Shown here: piece by piece, positions 5,113 to 54,998 of the stretch
How the letters are laid out: each line of letters begins with the position of its first letter
How positions within the stretch are numbered: position 1 is the stretch's first letter
From: a virus
Taxonomy: Duplodnaviria > Heunggongvirae > Uroviricota > Caudoviricetes
Virus record (IMG/VR): IMGVR_UViG_3300033153_012477
Span: 1-55,436 of that record
Direction: 5' to 3' (one strand)
DNA length: 55,436 bases
Position numbers and translations under genes: made by a program
The notes under the pieces: model-generated
Database searches by the model: none
What the model saw: the letters and a program-made list of their open reading frames with translations, nothing else
What the model was told of the DNA's origin: nothing

Positions 5113-5580
5113 TGGTGGAGCTGGGGGTAATCGAAACCCCGTCCGAAAGCTCTTCTTAGTCCTGATCTACGTGTGTAGTCTATTTCAACCTATAGACAGG
5201 CTGTGAGTTTTGGTTGTAGGTACACTGCCCGTATCACAACTTTATTTTGAGTCGCAGCTACCATTCGACTTGGGGGTGCTGTGACCTAAACCATAGCACC
5301 CTCCACCACTTACTTTTGAGAAAAGCAAGAAAACATGGGGAAAGTGTTATAACGCCCCTCCCACGTCTGCGGTCCTTCTCCTGTTTCTTGGCTAGGACAG
5401 CCTCATGGACTCAAAGCTATTAAGCTGCTAACCTTAGGCTAGGTGCTCTTTTCGCTCTGAATGCGTCCAAAGAAACTACATTTTCGTCAGTTACTTTTGT
5501 TTGAGTCTTTTAAAGAGTCCCGACTCACCTCTACACGCACAAAACTCGTCTGCTGCCCCCGTCGAAACCAGTGCAGCCCC
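5113..5580 (-). ncRNA. ssrA: tmRNA; tag (A)DENVVSLDAFRAKRAPSLRLAA at 5420-5488
   Basis: 5' GGGGCTGCACTGGTTTCGAC, 3' CAGCTCCACCA with G3.U70, T arm GGGGT-TTCGATT-ACCCC, tag ORF after AAAAGTAACT ending LAA-TAA-TAG. Confidence 0.95.
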
Positions 5581-10609: not shown

Positions 10610-11488
10610 TCACTTAGGTATATAATCAGAAAGATATTTTATGGATGTAATCTTAGTAACCTCTTCACCCTTACATTCATTTACACCACAAACATTATTT
10701 ATGTAACATCCTCTCATACGATCATAAGCATAATCAGTTACTCCTCTAACTAAAATTCCTTCTACAAGACCAGTTTCTTGATTGATAACTGGAGAACCTG
10801 AATTTCCACCAAAAGTATCAAGATTAGCTACCAAATAATTTACAGCACTGTTGTCACGGACAATTGCTTGATCAGCTATTTTAGTAGGGAGTCCTGAAGG
10901 ATGCCCAATCACAATCAGGGGGGTATTATTTTGAACAGTTCCCGATGTACGGACTTGTAAATAATCCCTATCAACTACAGGTCTATCAAGTTCAACAACA
11001 GCATAATCGTTATCACTTTCTCGATCTAAAACATATTCTATTACTTTACATGAATAAACCTTATCTTCTGGTATAAATTGCTCACTTTCAATTATATTTT
11101 TTTGGTTATAATCAAATACCCACTTATACATAGAACAAGTATCTAAAACAGTCATGCAGTGTCCTGCAGTAACCAATATTGTTGGAGAAATTAAAAACCC
11201 AGTACACTCTCCAACACTGTTTTGCTCTAAAAAACGAGTATCTTTACAAAAACCTCTTTGGTGCTTTAATGGAGAATAACCAAGAGTGTATCCTTTTCTC
11301 TCTTTATCATAGGTCATGTTATCAAAATCTATTTGAGCTGCAGTCGCAAGTGCCATATCAACTACTTGATTATTAGGGTATTCATTCATGTTAAAACGAT
11401 TATCCTCACCGTAGATCACCTTATCAATAGCAAATGAACTAAAAGTAATTAAAATAGGGAGTAAAAAAGTAATTAAAAATAATCTCAT
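10610..11488 (-). CDS. Secreted trypsin-like serine protease
   Basis: Signal peptide, VIYGEDNR mature N-terminus, TAGHC, NDYA, GGNSGSPV catalytic triad. Confidence 0.9.
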   Translation of the reverse strand: MRLFLITFLLPILITFSSFAIDKVIYGEDNRFNMNEYPNNQVVDMALATAAQIDFDNMTYDKERKGYTLGYSPLKHQRGFCKDTRFLEQNSVGECTGFLISPTILVTAGHCMTVLDTCSMYKWVFDYNQKNIIESEQFIPEDKVYSCKVIEYVLDRESDNDYAVVELDRPVVDRDYLQVRTSGTVQNNTPLIVIGHPSGLPTKIADQAIVRDNSAVNYLVANLDTFGGNSGSPVINQETGLVEGILVRGVTDYAYDRMRGCYINNVCGVNECKGEEVTKITSIKYLSDYIPK

Positions 11489-11607
11489 AGATAACCTCTT
11501 CCTTGTTAATTTAAAAACTACACTAAAACAGAGTTCTTTTTAGGATTCACGACAGAGGAAATATATGAAGAGATTATGTCTTTTCTATAAAATTGAAGGT
11601 TGGATAA

Positions 11608-11682
11608 TGGTAGCAGTGGAGAGAATTGAACTCTCGACCCCATCTTTATCAGAGATGTGCTCTACCCCTGAGCTACACTGCT
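11608..11682 (-). tRNA. tRNA-Ile(GAT)
   Basis: CATCT-CTGATAA-AGATG arm, CCA. Confidence 0.95.
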
Positions 11683-11689
11683 ATAATTT

Positions 11690-11821
11690 TTAAGAAGGAC
11701 GGACACACCTAACATTATTTAGGAGCCATCTATTCTTCTTATATGATCTTTTTAATAATTTTTTCCTGAGCTTAAATCTTTCTTTCTCACTTAGCTCATG
11801 AAATTGTCTTACTCTTTTCAT
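11690..11821 (-). CDS. Small basic protein (43 aa)
   Basis: MKRVRQFHELSEKERFKLRKKLL...; ATG 3 nt after the upstream stop. Confidence 0.45.
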   Translation of the reverse strand: MKRVRQFHELSEKERFKLRKKLLKRSYKKNRWLLNNVRCVRPS

Positions 11822-11823
11822 AA

Positions 11824-12051
11824 CTATTTCAATTGGTGTTTAAGTCTTCGTACTTCACTCAAAGACCTAAGATTTAATTTTTTAAGTTTCTCCATTTCAG
11901 ATAATTTATCATCGTGAAGAATTTCTTTCATTTTTTCTCTACGTTCTATTTTAGCAATAAGCTCATCTGTCACTTGAAAGTCTTCAGGATTAACAGTAAC
12001 CCCTTTATCCATATCTATTTCTTCTTTAATTAAATCTCTCTTGCTCATCAC
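11824..12051 (-). CDS. Hypothetical protein inside the Pro/Tyr/Ile tRNA operon
   Basis: AAGGAG RBS. Confidence 0.7.
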   Translation of the reverse strand: MMSKRDLIKEEIDMDKGVTVNPEDFQVTDELIAKIERREKMKEILHDDKLSEMEKLKKLNLRSLSEVRRLKHQLK

Positions 12052-12064
12052 AATCTCCTTAAAA

Positions 12065-12150
12065 TGGTGGTAGCGGAAGGATTTGAACCTTCGAACCCCG
12101 AAGAGAACAGATTTACAATCTGCATGCTTTAACCCCTTGCATACGCTACC
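12065..12150 (-). tRNA. tRNA-Tyr(GTA)
   Basis: GCAGA-TTGTAAA-TCTGT arm, long variable arm, CCA. Confidence 0.95.
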
Positions 12151-12158
12151 TAAATTTA

Positions 12159-12235
12159 TGGTCTCGGCGGCAAGATTTGAACTTGCGACCCTCTGCTCCC
12201 AAAGCAGATACCCTACCAGACTGGGCTACGCCGAG
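12159..12235 (-). tRNA. tRNA-Pro(TGG)
   Basis: CTGCT-TTGGGAG-CAG region with anticodon TGG, CTCGGCG/CGCCGAG acceptor, CCA. Confidence 0.95.
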
Positions 12236-12323
12236 ATATACTTATACAAATCTTTCGATTTATACTTTAAAAATGAATGTTTGTATTTTACGTGCCTGAT
12301 TAACGCCGACACACACTGATGTA

Positions 12324-12386
12324 TTATCCCCTGTAGGGGATATAGATCGGATAGAAAGGAATGTAGATTGTCATAAATTTTTTCAT
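12324..12386 (-). CDS. Leader peptide MKKFMTIYIPFYPIYIPYRG (20 aa)
   Basis: AGGA RBS; 11 of 12 core residues are I/Y/P, matching the downstream tRNA-Pro, -Tyr and -Ile. Confidence 0.8.
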   Translation of the reverse strand: MKKFMTIYIPFYPIYIPYRG

Positions 12387-12408
12387 AATAATTCCTACTT
12401 AGTACCCT

Positions 12409-12437
12409 ATATTAATGGAATATTAAAATTAAGTCAA
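12409..12437 (-). promoter_or_regulatory. Sigma70-like promoter of Pro/Tyr/Ile tRNA operon
   Basis: TTGACT-17-TAATAT. Confidence 0.7.
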
Positions 12438-12480
12438 CTTTTTTCTACTAATATTTTAAATAAAGTACAAGGAGGACAAC

Positions 12481-12627
12481 ATGGTAACATACACAACTAC
12501 AGCTTATTTTATTTCACCTAGTGGAAAAATGGTTAAACAAACGTATACTTTTGTGCAGGCAAATGTTGATGAAGAAGCAGAAACTGTCGCAGCAACTACC
12601 CCACATGTGGAAGTAGAAATTTCTTAA
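12481..12627 (+). CDS. Small hypothetical protein (48 aa)
   Basis: AGGAGG RBS; followed by hairpin GCCTCT-N4-AGAGGC and a T-rich tail. Confidence 0.65.
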   Translation: MVTYTTTAYFISPSGKMVKQTYTFVQANVDEEAETVAATTPHVEVEIS

Positions 12628-12638
12628 GGATGTAGCCT

Positions 12639-12803
12639 CTACCTAGAGGCTCTTCTTTTCTTTTCTTTTAAATGTATTTTATATATCCAAGTTTTCCAAT
12701 CATCCCCTAACTGATCATACACTTCTTGGATAGCTTCTAGAACACTGTTTAAGTGCTCATTAGAATAGGTCCGTACATAATCTTTCCAGAACTTAGGGTC
12801 CAT
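12639..12803 (-). CDS. Small hypothetical protein (54 aa)
   Basis: MDPKFWKDYVRTY...; GGAG RBS. Confidence 0.5.
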   Translation of the reverse strand: MDPKFWKDYVRTYSNEHLNSVLEAIQEVYDQLGDDWKTWIYKIHLKEKKRRASR

Positions 12804-12805
12804 GT

Positions 12806-13048
12806 TTACTCCAGATAAACATTAACAGAAACTTTCTCGAAATTATACTCACTAGCATAGTGATCCATGTATACTTGAGCTTTACTAGGGGTAAACAAGT
12901 AAGCTTTTTCTTTATCAACGGGTTTAGGTAGTGAAAACGTCTGGTGAGAAGTTAAAGAAACATACTTTCCGTCAGGATACTTAATTAGAAAAAAGTTCCT
13001 CTGCCACTTCACTTTTTGGTTTGATTTCTTTTGTGTCATCTTTCTCAA
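12806..13048 (-). CDS. Hypothetical protein (start uncertain)
   Basis: Track ORF. Confidence 0.55.
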   Translation of the reverse strand: MRKMTQKKSNQKVKWQRNFFLIKYPDGKYVSLTSHQTFSLPKPVDKEKAYLFTPSKAQVYMDHYASEYNFEKVSVNVYLE

Positions 13049-13532
13049 TTTTTTCTCCTTCGTCTGGTTGCACTACTAGAAAATAAAGTACGCCAGCACC
13101 ATGTCTTCTAGCAGCGTAAGCTCTCTTTCTCCCACTAAAACCCCAATAGCTTCCATCTTTAAATTTAACTACAATAGGAGCTTCTAAAAGGACATCACCT
13201 CTTTCCAGTTTGTTCTCTATCTCTTTATAGGATTGGGAGTATGTTTGGTCTTTTAATTTTTCCTCTACTTCTTTAGTCGAAGCAGCAAAGTTCTCTACTT
13301 TAGATAAGATGTCTTCGGTAAGAGAAACGAGTCTTCCTTTAGATAAAAACTTCCTTAGCTCCTTCTCATCTGAAAATCTTAGACCGTGTTTACCAAATAC
13401 AGAACAAGCTTCAGGATTATCAAAATAGCTTTCTATCTCATTACCTATAACTGGGTTTTCCCACTTAACACTGTAACGAGCTAGGAACATTCTAAGTATA
13501 TTATCAACGCTAGATTTTTTCATTTTTATCAA
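12981..13532 (-). CDS. Hypothetical protein, possible ParB/Srx-like domain
   Basis: APIVV...FSGRKRAYAA resembles the ParB-N G-x-x-R motif. Confidence 0.4.
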   Translation of the reverse strand: MIKMKKSSVDNILRMFLARYSVKWENPVIGNEIESYFDNPEACSVFGKHGLRFSDEKELRKFLSKGRLVSLTEDILSKVENFAASTKEVEEKLKDQTYSQSYKEIENKLERGDVLLEAPIVVKFKDGSYWGFSGRKRAYAARRHGAGVLYFLVVQPDEGEKIEKDDTKEIKPKSEVAEELFSN

Positions 13533-28654: not shown

Positions 28655-28793
28655 TGGTGGAGAGGGCAAGGATTTGAACCTGCGACACCCTGGTTTACCA
28701 CGAAGTATGTCTAATCTACGCCACGCTTTTAACAGCGGGTTCAAACGATAAGACTCTTTTCTCCAGGTGCTCTACCAACTGAGCTACCTCTCC
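28655..28793 (-). ncRNA. CCA-ended tRNA-like RNA carrying the Y RNA (Ro-binding) helix in place of the anticodon loop
   Basis: GGAGAGG/CCTCTCC-A-CCA, D and T arms, CCTGG/CCAGG stem enclosing 69 nt with ATCGTTTGAACC then GTGGCGTAGA. Confidence 0.8.
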
Positions 28794-54588: not shown

Positions 54589-54885
54589 ATGAAAAATAAT
54601 CTTTATGTTATAATCAGGAATGACCTAACAAGATCTCAAAAAGTAGTGCAAGCTGTACACGCATCTGCAGAGTTTCTCCTACATGAGAATAGTCATGTTT
54701 GGGATAATGGCACTGTGGTTTGTTTAAAAGTTAGAGATGAGCAAGAACTTTTAAATATTGAACAAAGTTTAAAAAAGATGTCTCTACCTTATAGGAGTTT
54801 TAGGGAACCTGATACAGGAAATGATATGACAGCTTTAGCTTTAGTGGGAGAAAGGAATCTATTTAGAGATTTGACATTAGCATAA
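54589..54885 (+). CDS. Pth2-like peptidyl-tRNA hydrolase
   Basis: YVIIRNDL, QAVHA, VVCLKV, FREPD..N..TALA. Confidence 0.75.
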   Translation: MKNNLYVIIRNDLTRSQKVVQAVHASAEFLLHENSHVWDNGTVVCLKVRDEQELLNIEQSLKKMSLPYRSFREPDTGNDMTALALVGERNLFRDLTLA

Positions 54886-54922
54886 TAGAAACTGTAACCT
54901 TTATGCAATAAGCTAAACTAGT

Positions 54923-54998
54923 GCTCCTATAGCTCAGTTGGCAGAGCAGCATTTTCTAAAAATGTTTGTCGCCAGTTCGACCCTGGCTAGGAGCACCA
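54923..54998 (+). tRNA. Amber suppressor tRNA, anticodon CTA
   Basis: 76-nt cloverleaf; GCATT-TTCTAAA-AATGT places CTA at 34-36 (54956-54958); CCA end. Confidence 0.88.

Follow-up and report, generated by a model that had tools for sequence, protein, structure and literature searches.

A predicted leader peptide matched in codon content to the phage tRNA-Pro, tRNA-Tyr and tRNA-Ile genes that follow it

Short translated leader ORFs are used by bacteria in several ways to couple decoding to the fate of the downstream RNA. In the multivalent transcription attenuators of enterobacterial amino acid operons (thrL with Thr/Ile, ilvL with Ile/Leu/Val, and also hisL, trpL, and pheL) and in pheM of pheST, an ORF with its own Shine-Dalgarno (SD) site lies at the 5′ end of the transcript and carries a dense run of codons for several amino acids tied to the downstream products, with a stop codon in or next to structured RNA and an SD that can be closed after the first round of reading. 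In tnaC of the tna operon and mgtL of mgtA, the latter sensing Pro decoding through its Pro codons, there is no intrinsic terminator, and the position of the ribosome decides whether a termination factor can load. In the ermC and ermA leaders of Bacillus, a drug-stalled ribosome stabilizes the downstream mRNA without a terminator, while T-box riboswitches control translation-supply genes according to tRNA status. The cargo of the enterobacterial attenuators is biosynthetic or synthetase genes. We found no publication describing codon-matched leaders before tRNA operons.

Here we examined a candidate leader of this kind in the genome (192.7 kb) of a large uncultured phage, within an analyzed stretch of 55,436 nucleotides (hereafter “the window”). 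The initial annotation had noted a 20-aa ORF rich in Ile, Tyr, and Pro upstream of tRNA-Pro, tRNA-Tyr, and tRNA-Ile, and this observation is confirmed. The unit comprises the following features, all on the minus strand:

12437–12409 (−), sigma-70-type promoter, TTGACT (12437–12432), 17-nt spacer, TAATAT (12414–12409)
12396–12391 (−), SD AGGAAU, 6 nt before the ATG, able to pair with codons 9–10
12386–12324 (−), leader ORF of 20 codons plus TAA, MKKFMTIYIPFYPIYIPYRG, reading ATG AAA AAA TTT ATG ACA ATC TAC ATT CCT TTC TAT CCG ATC TAT ATC CCC TAC AGG GGA TAA
12368–12333 (−), candidate regulatory core, codons 7–18, IYIPFYPIYIPY
12362–12357 (−), AUUCCU (codons 9–10), complementary to the SD
12348–12318 (−), hairpin H1, core UAUCCCC/GGGGAUA at 12342–12325 with outer pairs GAU/AUC, containing codons 15–17 in its 5′ arm and the stop codon in its 3′ arm
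12314–12290 (−), hairpin H2, GUGUGUC ... GGCACGU, with an 11-nt loop containing AUCA
12290–12266 (−), G-free A/C/U spacer ending in a U run (12273–12269)
12264–12244 (−), AU-rich hairpin H3 with a GAAA loop, not followed by a U tract
12235–12159 (−), tRNA-Pro (UGG), CCA encoded
12150–12065 (−), tRNA-Tyr (GUA), CCA encoded
12051–11824 (−), 75-aa ORF inside the operon, no known family, with homologs only in relatives and at the same place
11821–11690 (−), 43-aa basic ORF inside the operon, no family hit
11682–11608 (−), tRNA-Ile (GAU), CCA encoded

The three tRNA genes were identified with both ARAGORN and Rfam, and are the only tRNAs downstream in the unit. The H1 core lies 2 nt off the coordinates implied by the initial annotation, while the TCGGCG segment that it highlighted is at 12309–12304 as given.

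We next evaluated whether this match could arise by chance. Codons 7–18 include 4 Ile, 4 Tyr, 3 Pro, and one Phe, i.e., 11 of 12 codons are Ile/Tyr/Pro, whereas these three amino acids make up 15.1% of codons in the long ORFs of the genome. Across 183,929 12-codon windows in all six frames of the genome, a single one reached 11/12 for these residues, and it is this ORF. About 120 loci have 11/12 residues drawn from any three amino acids, and the chance that these three would be exactly those of the adjacent tRNAs is of the order of 1 in 1140 (20 choose 3). The Ile codons of the core are ATC (three) and ATT (one) with no ATA, i.e., the codons read by GAU, against a genome usage of 38% ATA, 44% ATT, and 18% ATC.

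To assess conservation, which had been set beforehand as a test of the proposal, we identified nine further distinct relatives in metagenomes (designated L001, L003, L004, L005, L011, L012, L014, L015, and L020), giving ten versions including the window. By contrast, scans of a collection of viral contigs with the 75-aa, a 183-aa, and the protease ORFs taken singly, and with three DNA patterns (the back-translated core, the 3′ half of tRNA-Tyr, and the H1 region), returned nothing. All ten versions carry the promoter, SD, ATG, ORF (17–20 codons), stop codon, and H1. The −10 element is identical in all ten, the −35 element is TTGACT in nine and TTTACT in L003, and the SD region reads TAGGAAT in nine and AAGGAAT in L020. 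The core IYIPFYPIYIP is identical in eight of the ten versions, one further version has a single substitution, and one (L001) is degenerate. Leaving L001 aside, core changes are TAC/TAT, CCT/CCA, TTC/TTT, CCG/CCA, ATC/ATT, and CCC/CCT, plus one P10S, i.e., at least 7 synonymous events against 1 non-synonymous, while codons 3–6 and 18–19 vary freely. The two ORF indels are whole codons, one of which removes the only non-Ile/Tyr/Pro core residue, whereas indels in the flanking non-coding parts are 1–5 nt. In L020, the ORF stops right after the core.

The tRNAs behind the leader retained their identity rather than their sequence. In six relatives, the leader element is 83–93% identical to the window, while the tRNAs are 60–87% identical and the flanking coding DNA 66–72% identical. 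The ORF is always followed by tRNA-Pro (UGG), by tRNA-Ile (GAU) in all seven relatives whose contig reaches that far, and by tRNA-Tyr (GUA) in every relative that reaches that far except one lineage. Inserts inside the operon differ (none in L004, where the unit is the leader plus three tRNAs only, an S4-domain ORF in L005, a 90-aa ORF in L020, and the 75-aa ORF in the window), so that the tRNAs are the only constant cargo. Taken together, this indicates that the frame is under selection at the codon or amino acid level, and that its tie to these tRNAs is not chance. The exceptional lineage (L001 and L002), which lacks tRNA-Tyr at this locus (on a 138-kb contig for L001), did not, however, lose Tyr codons specifically: its core is generally degraded (I7K, P10S, Y12N, I14T), and a Tyr was gained at codon 4.

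Part of this conservation could also reflect constraints on the RNA, since the core includes the anti-SD at codons 9–10 and the H1 arm at codons 13–17. The helix between the SD and codons 9–10 appears in both consensus and single-sequence folds, and both CCT to TCT changes (L011 and L001) maintain the pairing as G–U. This helix fits single-round, co-transcriptional reading of the leader. H1 (−11.8 kcal/mol in the window) has a conserved stem and a variable loop, with compensatory changes at two outer pairs. In H2, the closing C–G pair becomes U–A in L004 and L001, and the stem is longer in L004. The non-coding part after the stop codon is as conserved as the ORF, and the H1 half-sites are invariant with a variable 4–6-nt spacer, as expected of a protein-binding palindrome as well as of a hairpin. 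The element may thus function as RNA or DNA without codon-specific information, for instance as a structured 5′ leader guiding precursor processing or stability, or as a palindromic operator, with a frame that merely keeps a ribosome behind RNA polymerase, and the absence of a terminator to gate would be consistent with this view. We consider it unlikely, because third-position changes in codons 8, 10, 11, 13, 14, and 17 show that nucleotides are free where the amino acid is kept, whole-codon indels occur only inside the ORF, the start, SD, and stop are kept in all ten versions, and this view does not explain why the residues equal the tRNA set.

The interpretation given in the initial annotation, i.e., control of these tRNAs through translation of the ORF, is partly supported. 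The lack of a canonical poly-U terminator, which it had been unable to find, is correct: no intrinsic terminator was detected on this strand between the ORF and tRNA-Pro, neither H1 nor H2 is followed by a U tract, and the U run lies 16 nt after H2 and, in L005, L004, and L001, only 1–7 nt before tRNA-Pro. Among the ten versions, nine have no terminator and L014 has only a weak hairpin with a U-rich tail. H3 is present in six of ten versions and absent from L005, L003, L004, and L001. Folds with the ribosome footprint blocked at codons 7–21, and consensus folds with arms blocked, showed only H1, H2, and the SD helix, the sole alternative being GGGGAU paired with UAUCC of codons 12–13, and no conserved alternative pairing that creates or removes a terminator. 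A long-range stem AGUGUGUGU/ACAAACAUU ending at the U run was rejected, since the L003-type changes (U to C, A to G) do not fall opposite each other and weaken it. Pairing between the A tract and U run is too weak, and pairing of the start-codon region with UUCAU appears only in some constrained folds. The speculative pairing of TCGGCG with the tRNA-Pro 3′ acceptor strand, also proposed in the initial annotation, is not supported: the segment is conserved while the acceptor stem differs between relatives (CTCGGCG, CTGAGCG, CGGAGTG, CGGGGTG, CGGAGAT, CGGGGCG), so that the pairing does not covary, and the 7-nt identity exists only in the window and in L011, which have the same tRNA-Pro.

Compared with the classical attenuators, this locus has the short ORF with SD and start codon and the cluster of cognate codons, but its cargo is tRNA genes, it is carried by a phage, and it has no detectable intrinsic terminator or mutually exclusive terminator/antiterminator pair. 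With regard to the Rho-dependent leaders tnaC and mgtL, the ORF core here is C-rich and G-poor and a G-free spacer follows (24–54 nt in every relative), but Rho-type features are weak: the core has 14 C and 1 G over 40 nt (99.8th percentile of C-over-G excess for 40-nt windows) but falls to the 90th percentile at 78 nt, and the RNA next to the stop codon is G-rich and folded. In contrast to the erm leaders, where the stall is drug-induced and the cargo is an mRNA, the cargo here is tRNA precursors, which RNase P releases quickly. No Stem I platform or T-box sequence was found, and no Rfam match at E ≤ 1 was obtained in 11400–12700 apart from the three tRNAs. Any sensing here would be by a translating ribosome. 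The H2 loop does display AUCA, an Ile codon plus A, in all versions, with 5–7 nt of complementarity to the tRNA-Ile anticodon loop in most of them. However, the motif lies partly inside the stem in L004, there is no analog for Pro or Tyr, and a codon-plus-A match to one of three tRNAs has a chance of about 25%.

A second leader in the same genome (leader 1, at about 2279–2202, MKKVLSNLHLNLSQQLNTVVSGRFV) precedes two tRNA-Gln, tRNA-Asn, tRNA-His, tRNA-Ser (GCU), RtcB, and tRNA-Leu, matches its own tRNA set, and has a canonical terminator. In L003, its codons 12 and 14 are swapped (TTA..CAA to CAA..TTA), which keeps composition but not order. The two leaders share their layout and align better than shuffled sequences (score of 81 against 40 ± 7), and H3 sits where leader 1 has its GC-rich terminator, although H3 is missing in four relatives. 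This raises the possibility that the leader described here is a decayed copy of a leader-1-type attenuator that has lost its terminator, so that the operon is now constitutive and the ORF a relic. The L001 version shows that the core can degrade. This appears very unlikely, as a relic would neither stay 83–93% identical while the tRNAs and neighboring genes drift to 60–87%, nor change in a way that is synonymous with one exception. The paralogy itself is weak, since a profile of the leader retrieved only itself and not leader 1, with one weak hit (genome 130883–130978) inside a protein gene. A spot check of two cultured phages was not convincing, and we draw no conclusion from it: Erwinia phage pEa_SNUABM_55 has an ordinary 80-aa gene and a hairpin before its 16 tRNAs, and Sulfitobacter phage vB_SupP_AX has a 37-aa ORF plus a terminator before Pro-Gln-Ile-Tyr, with only a mild P/Q/I/Y patch.

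The invariant order of core residues in eight versions would equally fit a functional peptide, for example a membrane-active or type-I-toxin-like micropeptide whose composition is unrelated to the tRNAs. Consistent with this, core changes are mostly synonymous, the SD is sequestered by an internal helix as in type I toxin mRNAs, and a weak antisense promoter-like site (TTAACG-16-TATTAT) lies at 12300–12327 on the plus strand. We nevertheless find this improbable: the enriched residues are exactly the three downstream tRNA identities, leader 1, unrelated in sequence, matches its own tRNA set, the C-terminus is variable and can be truncated (17–20 aa), an internal residue can be deleted, three prolines within the 14-residue hydrophobic stretch argue against a membrane helix, the antisense −35 is not conserved in L003, L014, or L020, and the L004 unit comprises nothing beyond the leader and tRNAs.

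Overall, the ORF is probably (probability of about 0.6) a leader peptide acting as a ribosome-operated gauge of Ile, Tyr, and Pro decoding. In this view, an early-type promoter would start the transcript, and one ribosome would load on the exposed SD during transcription, after which pairing with codons 9–10 would close the SD, so that the leader would be read about once per transcript. If Ile-, Tyr-, or Pro-tRNA is short, through phage demand or host tRNA loss, the ribosome would dwell on codons 7–17 and cover the C-rich, G-poor core, whereas under good supply it would run into H1, stop at UAA, and leave. The ORF, its signals, its codon-level conservation, and its fixed association with these three tRNA identities are established by the sequence comparisons, while all of these steps, including any effect of ribosome dwell time on tRNA output and any dependence on Rho, are inferred, as the data include no evidence for a regulatory output. 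Rho-dependent, processing-based, and irregular-hairpin control, as suggested in the initial annotation, all remain conjecture. Without an intrinsic terminator, the most likely output is factor-dependent premature termination (tnaC/mgtL-like, with the stalled ribosome masking the C-rich core) or altered decay or processing of the precursor in the conserved H1–H2–G-free spacer region, although we hold neither strongly. A more far-reaching and tentative possibility is that a ribosome slowed on these codons masks a C-rich loading or cleavage region and so raises output of the phage’s own Pro, Tyr, and Ile tRNAs. This would let the phage replace host tRNAs on demand, for example after attack by anticodon nucleases, together with the tmRNA, RtcB, PTH2, and suppressor tRNA encoded in the same window.

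Phage tRNA genes are usually discussed as a fixed supplement, either for codon compensation or to escape tRNA-cleaving defenses (PMC10264068, PMC11555353). The comparative evidence for selection on the test frame is strong at this locus, and because it lacks the standard terminator, it could reveal a second way of coupling ribosome speed to RNA output. A translated test frame written in the codons of the tRNAs behind it would mean that phages measure decoding capacity and adjust their own tRNA supply, which would extend leader-peptide sensing from amino acid and synthetase genes to tRNA genes.

The window represents the first 55 kb of a single 192.7-kb contig with about 35% G+C, and it encodes T4-like replication genes (UvsX-like recombinase, Dda-like helicase) as well as a GroEL, indicating that it derives from a large phage. 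All ten tRNA genes of the genome are found in the window. No close relative was identified in the phage databases, in which only the tRNAs themselves matched other phages. The leader under study lies on the minus strand and includes, in order:
12437-12409 (-), promoter, TTGACT-17-TAATAT
12396-12391 (-), Shine-Dalgarno (SD) site, AGGAAU
12386-12324 (-), 20-codon open reading frame (ORF), MKKFMTIYIPFYPIYIPYRG
12342-12325 (-), hairpin UAUCCCC-UACA-GGGGAUA, with codons 15-17 in one arm and the stop codon in the other

Codons 7-18 of this ORF correspond to four Ile (ATC, ATT, ATC, ATC), four Tyr, three Pro, and one Phe. Downstream are tRNA-Pro(UGG), tRNA-Tyr(GUA), a 75-aa ORF, a 43-aa ORF, and tRNA-Ile(GAU), and no intrinsic terminator was detected on this strand. 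The observation made in the initial annotation, namely an Ile-, Tyr-, and Pro-rich ORF with a hairpin over its stop codon ahead of these three tRNAs and without a canonical terminator, was thus confirmed in every factual element, except for a 2-nt offset in the hairpin coordinates.

We next evaluated whether this composition could have arisen by chance. Among 183,929 12-codon windows across all six frames of the genome, exactly one contained 11 I/Y/P residues, and it corresponded to this ORF, while the next classes (9-10 residues) included ten windows in total. For comparison, I+Y+P represent 15.1% of codons in long ORFs. Roughly 120 loci in the six-frame translation are dominated by some three residues, and the chance that these three would be those of the adjacent tRNAs is about 1/1140. 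A second small ORF in the window, MKKVLSNLHLNLSQQLNTVVSGRFV (about 2279-2202; "leader 1", within 2132-2300 on the minus strand), precedes tRNA-Gln, Gln, Asn, His, Ser(GCU), RtcB, and tRNA-Leu, and is followed by a canonical terminator in a strongly structured leader (z = -5.5). Two independent matches in one genome cannot reasonably be coincidence. In folds of leader 1 constrained by ribosome position, the terminator formed in every ribosome state, and what changed was instead an 11-bp helix between the end of the ORF and CUAAACAAAU, just upstream of the terminator. In the same unit, an 86-aa basic, Cys-rich ORF without Pfam hit (1663-1923, -) is located between tRNA-Gln and tRNA-Asn.

To identify relatives of the locus, we started from the 183-aa protein encoded upstream (12981-13532), which has metagenomic homologues at 59-83% identity. 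The contigs encoding these homologues, together with a profile scan of JGI metagenomes and a homologue of the 75-aa operon ORF, yielded nine further distinct versions of the locus, designated L001 (=L002), L003, L004 (=L010), L005 (=L006=L008), L011, L012 (=L016), L014, L015, and L020. Synteny is kept, with the 183-aa gene, two small ORFs, a divergent 48-aa ORF, the leader, the tRNAs, and a 131-aa gene, although the upstream context differs in L020, in which promoter, leader, and tRNAs nevertheless stay together. The 48-aa ORF (MVTYTTTAYFISPSGK...; 12481-12627, +) diverges from the leader promoter, has its own terminator at 12634-12651, and is conserved in eight of the nine relatives (61-82% identity; absent from L020), without any family assignment. 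Some relatives (L001:4455-4994, L003:1456-1848, L004:186-503) also encode RRM_1-domain RNA-binding proteins a few kb upstream of the leader locus, and L001 and L004 carry TnpB/Cas12f-like genes nearby.

All ten versions retain the -10 box, the SD, the ATG, an ORF of 17-20 codons, and the stop-codon hairpin, while the -35 box is TTGACT in nine versions and TTTACT in L003. Conservation of the ORF, the absence of which had been set beforehand as grounds for refutation, was therefore verified. The core IYIPFYPIYIP is identical in eight versions. L011 displays P10S, L015 has lost exactly the Phe codon, i.e., the only non-I/Y/P residue of the core, L012 and L011 lack codon 6, and in L020 the ORF stops immediately after Pro17. 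Within the core, the differences among the nine versions other than L001 are TAC/TAT, CCT/CCA, TTC/TTT, CCG/CCA, ATC/ATT, and CCC/CCT, along with the single P10S, whereas codons 3-6 and 18-19 change amino acid freely. Indels inside the ORF are whole codons, while those in the untranslated parts are 1-5 nt. This is the signature of a translated frame in which the identity of the core codons is what matters.

The leader element, taken from the -35 box to the U run, is 83-93% identical to the window in six relatives. In contrast, tRNA-Pro, Tyr, and Ile of these relatives are 60-87% identical (mostly 65-73%), with different acceptor stems, and the flanking coding DNA is 66-72% identical. The tRNA sequences therefore drift or are replaced. 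Genes are also inserted between them, including the 75-aa ORF here, a 90-aa ORF in L020, and a 57-aa stand-alone S4 domain similar to the TyrRS C-terminal domain (PF22421, E 1.2e-08; PF01479) between tRNA-Pro and tRNA-Tyr in L005 (3753-3926), while L004 has no insert. The pairing of an I/Y/P leader with Pro/Tyr/Ile anticodons persists throughout, with L001 as the exception (see below). The Ile codons used are those read by GAU, and ATC, the rarest Ile codon of the genome (18%), is used three times out of four.

L001/L002 carry tRNA-Pro and tRNA-Ile but no tRNA-Tyr at this locus. Their leader retains the SD, the frame, and both downstream hairpins (H1 and H2, described below; H2 with compensatory changes), but its core reads NIKYISFNPTYIP, i.e., one Tyr, one Pro, and two Ile are lost, and a Tyr is gained at codon 4. 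This is a general relaxation rather than a Tyr-specific adjustment, and so does not provide the clean co-variation that would be predicted for a sensor. Likewise, L003 has lost both tRNA-Gln genes behind leader 1 (L003:17975-18130) yet keeps two Gln codons. By visual inspection of the sequence only, L003 also retains a reading frame similar to the 86-aa ORF at the same place (L003:18140-18345). On the other hand, leader 1 in L003 has codons 12 and 14 exchanged (TTA..CAA to CAA..TTA), which preserves composition but not order, as would be expected of regulatory codons rather than of a functional peptide.

Consensus and single-sequence folds of the leader RNA revealed four features. First, a helix is predicted between the SD (AGGAAU) and codons 9-10 (AUUCCU), and both CCT-to-TCT changes maintain it as G-U. 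Second, the stop-codon hairpin (H1) has an invariant core, a variable loop, and outer GAU/AUC pairs that show two compensatory changes. Third, a second hairpin (H2, GUGUC/GGCAC; 12290-12314, -) has a closing C-G that becomes U-A in L004 and L001, and a longer stem in L004. The loop of H2 carries AUCA (an Ile codon plus A) in all ten versions, and in L003, L014, and L020 the 7-nt UUAUCAG is the exact complement of the tRNA-Ile(GAU) anticodon loop CUGAUAA. This could however be due to chance, as there is no analogue for Pro or Tyr, and the motif is partly in the stem in L004. Fourth, a G-free A/C/U spacer of 24-54 nt ends in a U run. In L005, L004, and L001 this U run lies 1-7 nt before tRNA-Pro, and thus looks like part of the tRNA 5' leader rather than a terminator tail. 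An AU-rich GAAA hairpin (H3) is inserted after the U run in six versions, and is followed by a U-rich tail only in L014. When a ribosome footprint was placed at successive codons, and individual arms were blocked in the consensus fold, no conserved alternative structure was obtained near the U run, the only conserved alternative being GGGGAU pairing with UAUCC of codons 12-13. Rfam includes no family for the leader. We also evaluated the suggestion of the initial annotation that a TCGGCG segment could pair with the tRNA-Pro 3' acceptor strand. The segment is conserved (GUGUCGGCG in eight versions), but the acceptor strand reads CTCGGCG, CTGAGCG, CGGAGTG, CGGGGTG, CGGAGAT, CGGAGCG, or CGGGGCG in different relatives, and the pairing is good only in the window and L011, which share the same tRNA-Pro. 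Hence, it is not a conserved feature.

Taken together, the sensor half of a possible mechanism is well supported by these comparisons, in which a frame under selection for I/Y/P codons, read by a ribosome that would load before the SD is closed, sits at the head of a unit whose only constant cargo is the three cognate tRNAs. The output half is in contrast inferred, and in the absence of an intrinsic terminator two known principles fit best. One is factor-dependent termination set by ribosome position, as in tnaC and mgtL: the ORF core is the most C-over-G-rich 40-nt stretch of the transcript (14 C, 1 G; 99.8th percentile) and is followed by a G-free spacer, although this bias fades at the 60-80 nt scale typical of Rho sites, and the RNA next to the stop codon is G-rich and folded. 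The other is an effect of the stalled ribosome on precursor decay or processing, as in erm leaders. The present data do not separate these two options, nor do they exclude that this copy no longer gates anything. Leaders 1 and 2 (the latter being the I/Y/P leader) share their layout and a modest sequence similarity (score 81 against 40 +/- 7 for shuffles), but a profile of leader 2 did not retrieve leader 1, hence common descent is only suggested.

Full-text literature searches returned no paper describing leader-peptide control of tRNA genes in phages or bacteria, and phage tRNAs are instead treated as codon compensation or as escape from tRNA-cleaving defences (PMC10264068, PMC11555353). Leader-peptide attenuation is established for amino-acid operons and pheST, with Rho-dependent variants for tna and mgtA, but is not known for tRNA genes. 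In Sulfitobacter phage vB_SupP_AX (L018:2830-3002), a 37-aa annotated ORF followed by a GC-rich hairpin plus U tract lies immediately before tRNA-Pro-Gln-Ile-Tyr, and its stretch LPQPAWVQNLYI holds 6 of 12 P/Q/I/Y residues, which is suggestive only.

Other genes in the window are also linked to translation. These include a tmRNA (5113-5580, -; Rfam RF00023, 127.5 bits, E 1.5e-49) that was not reported by ARAGORN, and for which the syntenic relative L003 (16290-16880) has a similar sequence with a tag frame that appears to end in LAA. A PTH2-type peptidyl-tRNA hydrolase ORF (54589-54998, +; Pfam PF01981, E 3.8e-06), ending in TAATAG, is located directly upstream of a tRNA with anticodon CUA, which reads the amber stop codon and is labelled "Pyl" by ARAGORN. 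In addition, a 136-nt stretch (28658-28793, -) is scored as tRNA by Rfam (45 bits) but is not called by ARAGORN. Together with RtcB and the two leaders, the tmRNA and the hydrolase-tRNA pair give the window a translation-maintenance gene set. Overall, the interpretation proposed in the initial annotation was partly supported: one speculative detail (the TCGGCG pairing) is rejected, one relative argues against simple co-evolution, and the regulatory output remains inferred, while the reading as a codon-matched leader is supported at the level of the sensor. We estimate a probability of about 0.6 that this leader is a ribosome-operated sensor tied to the phage tRNA operon.
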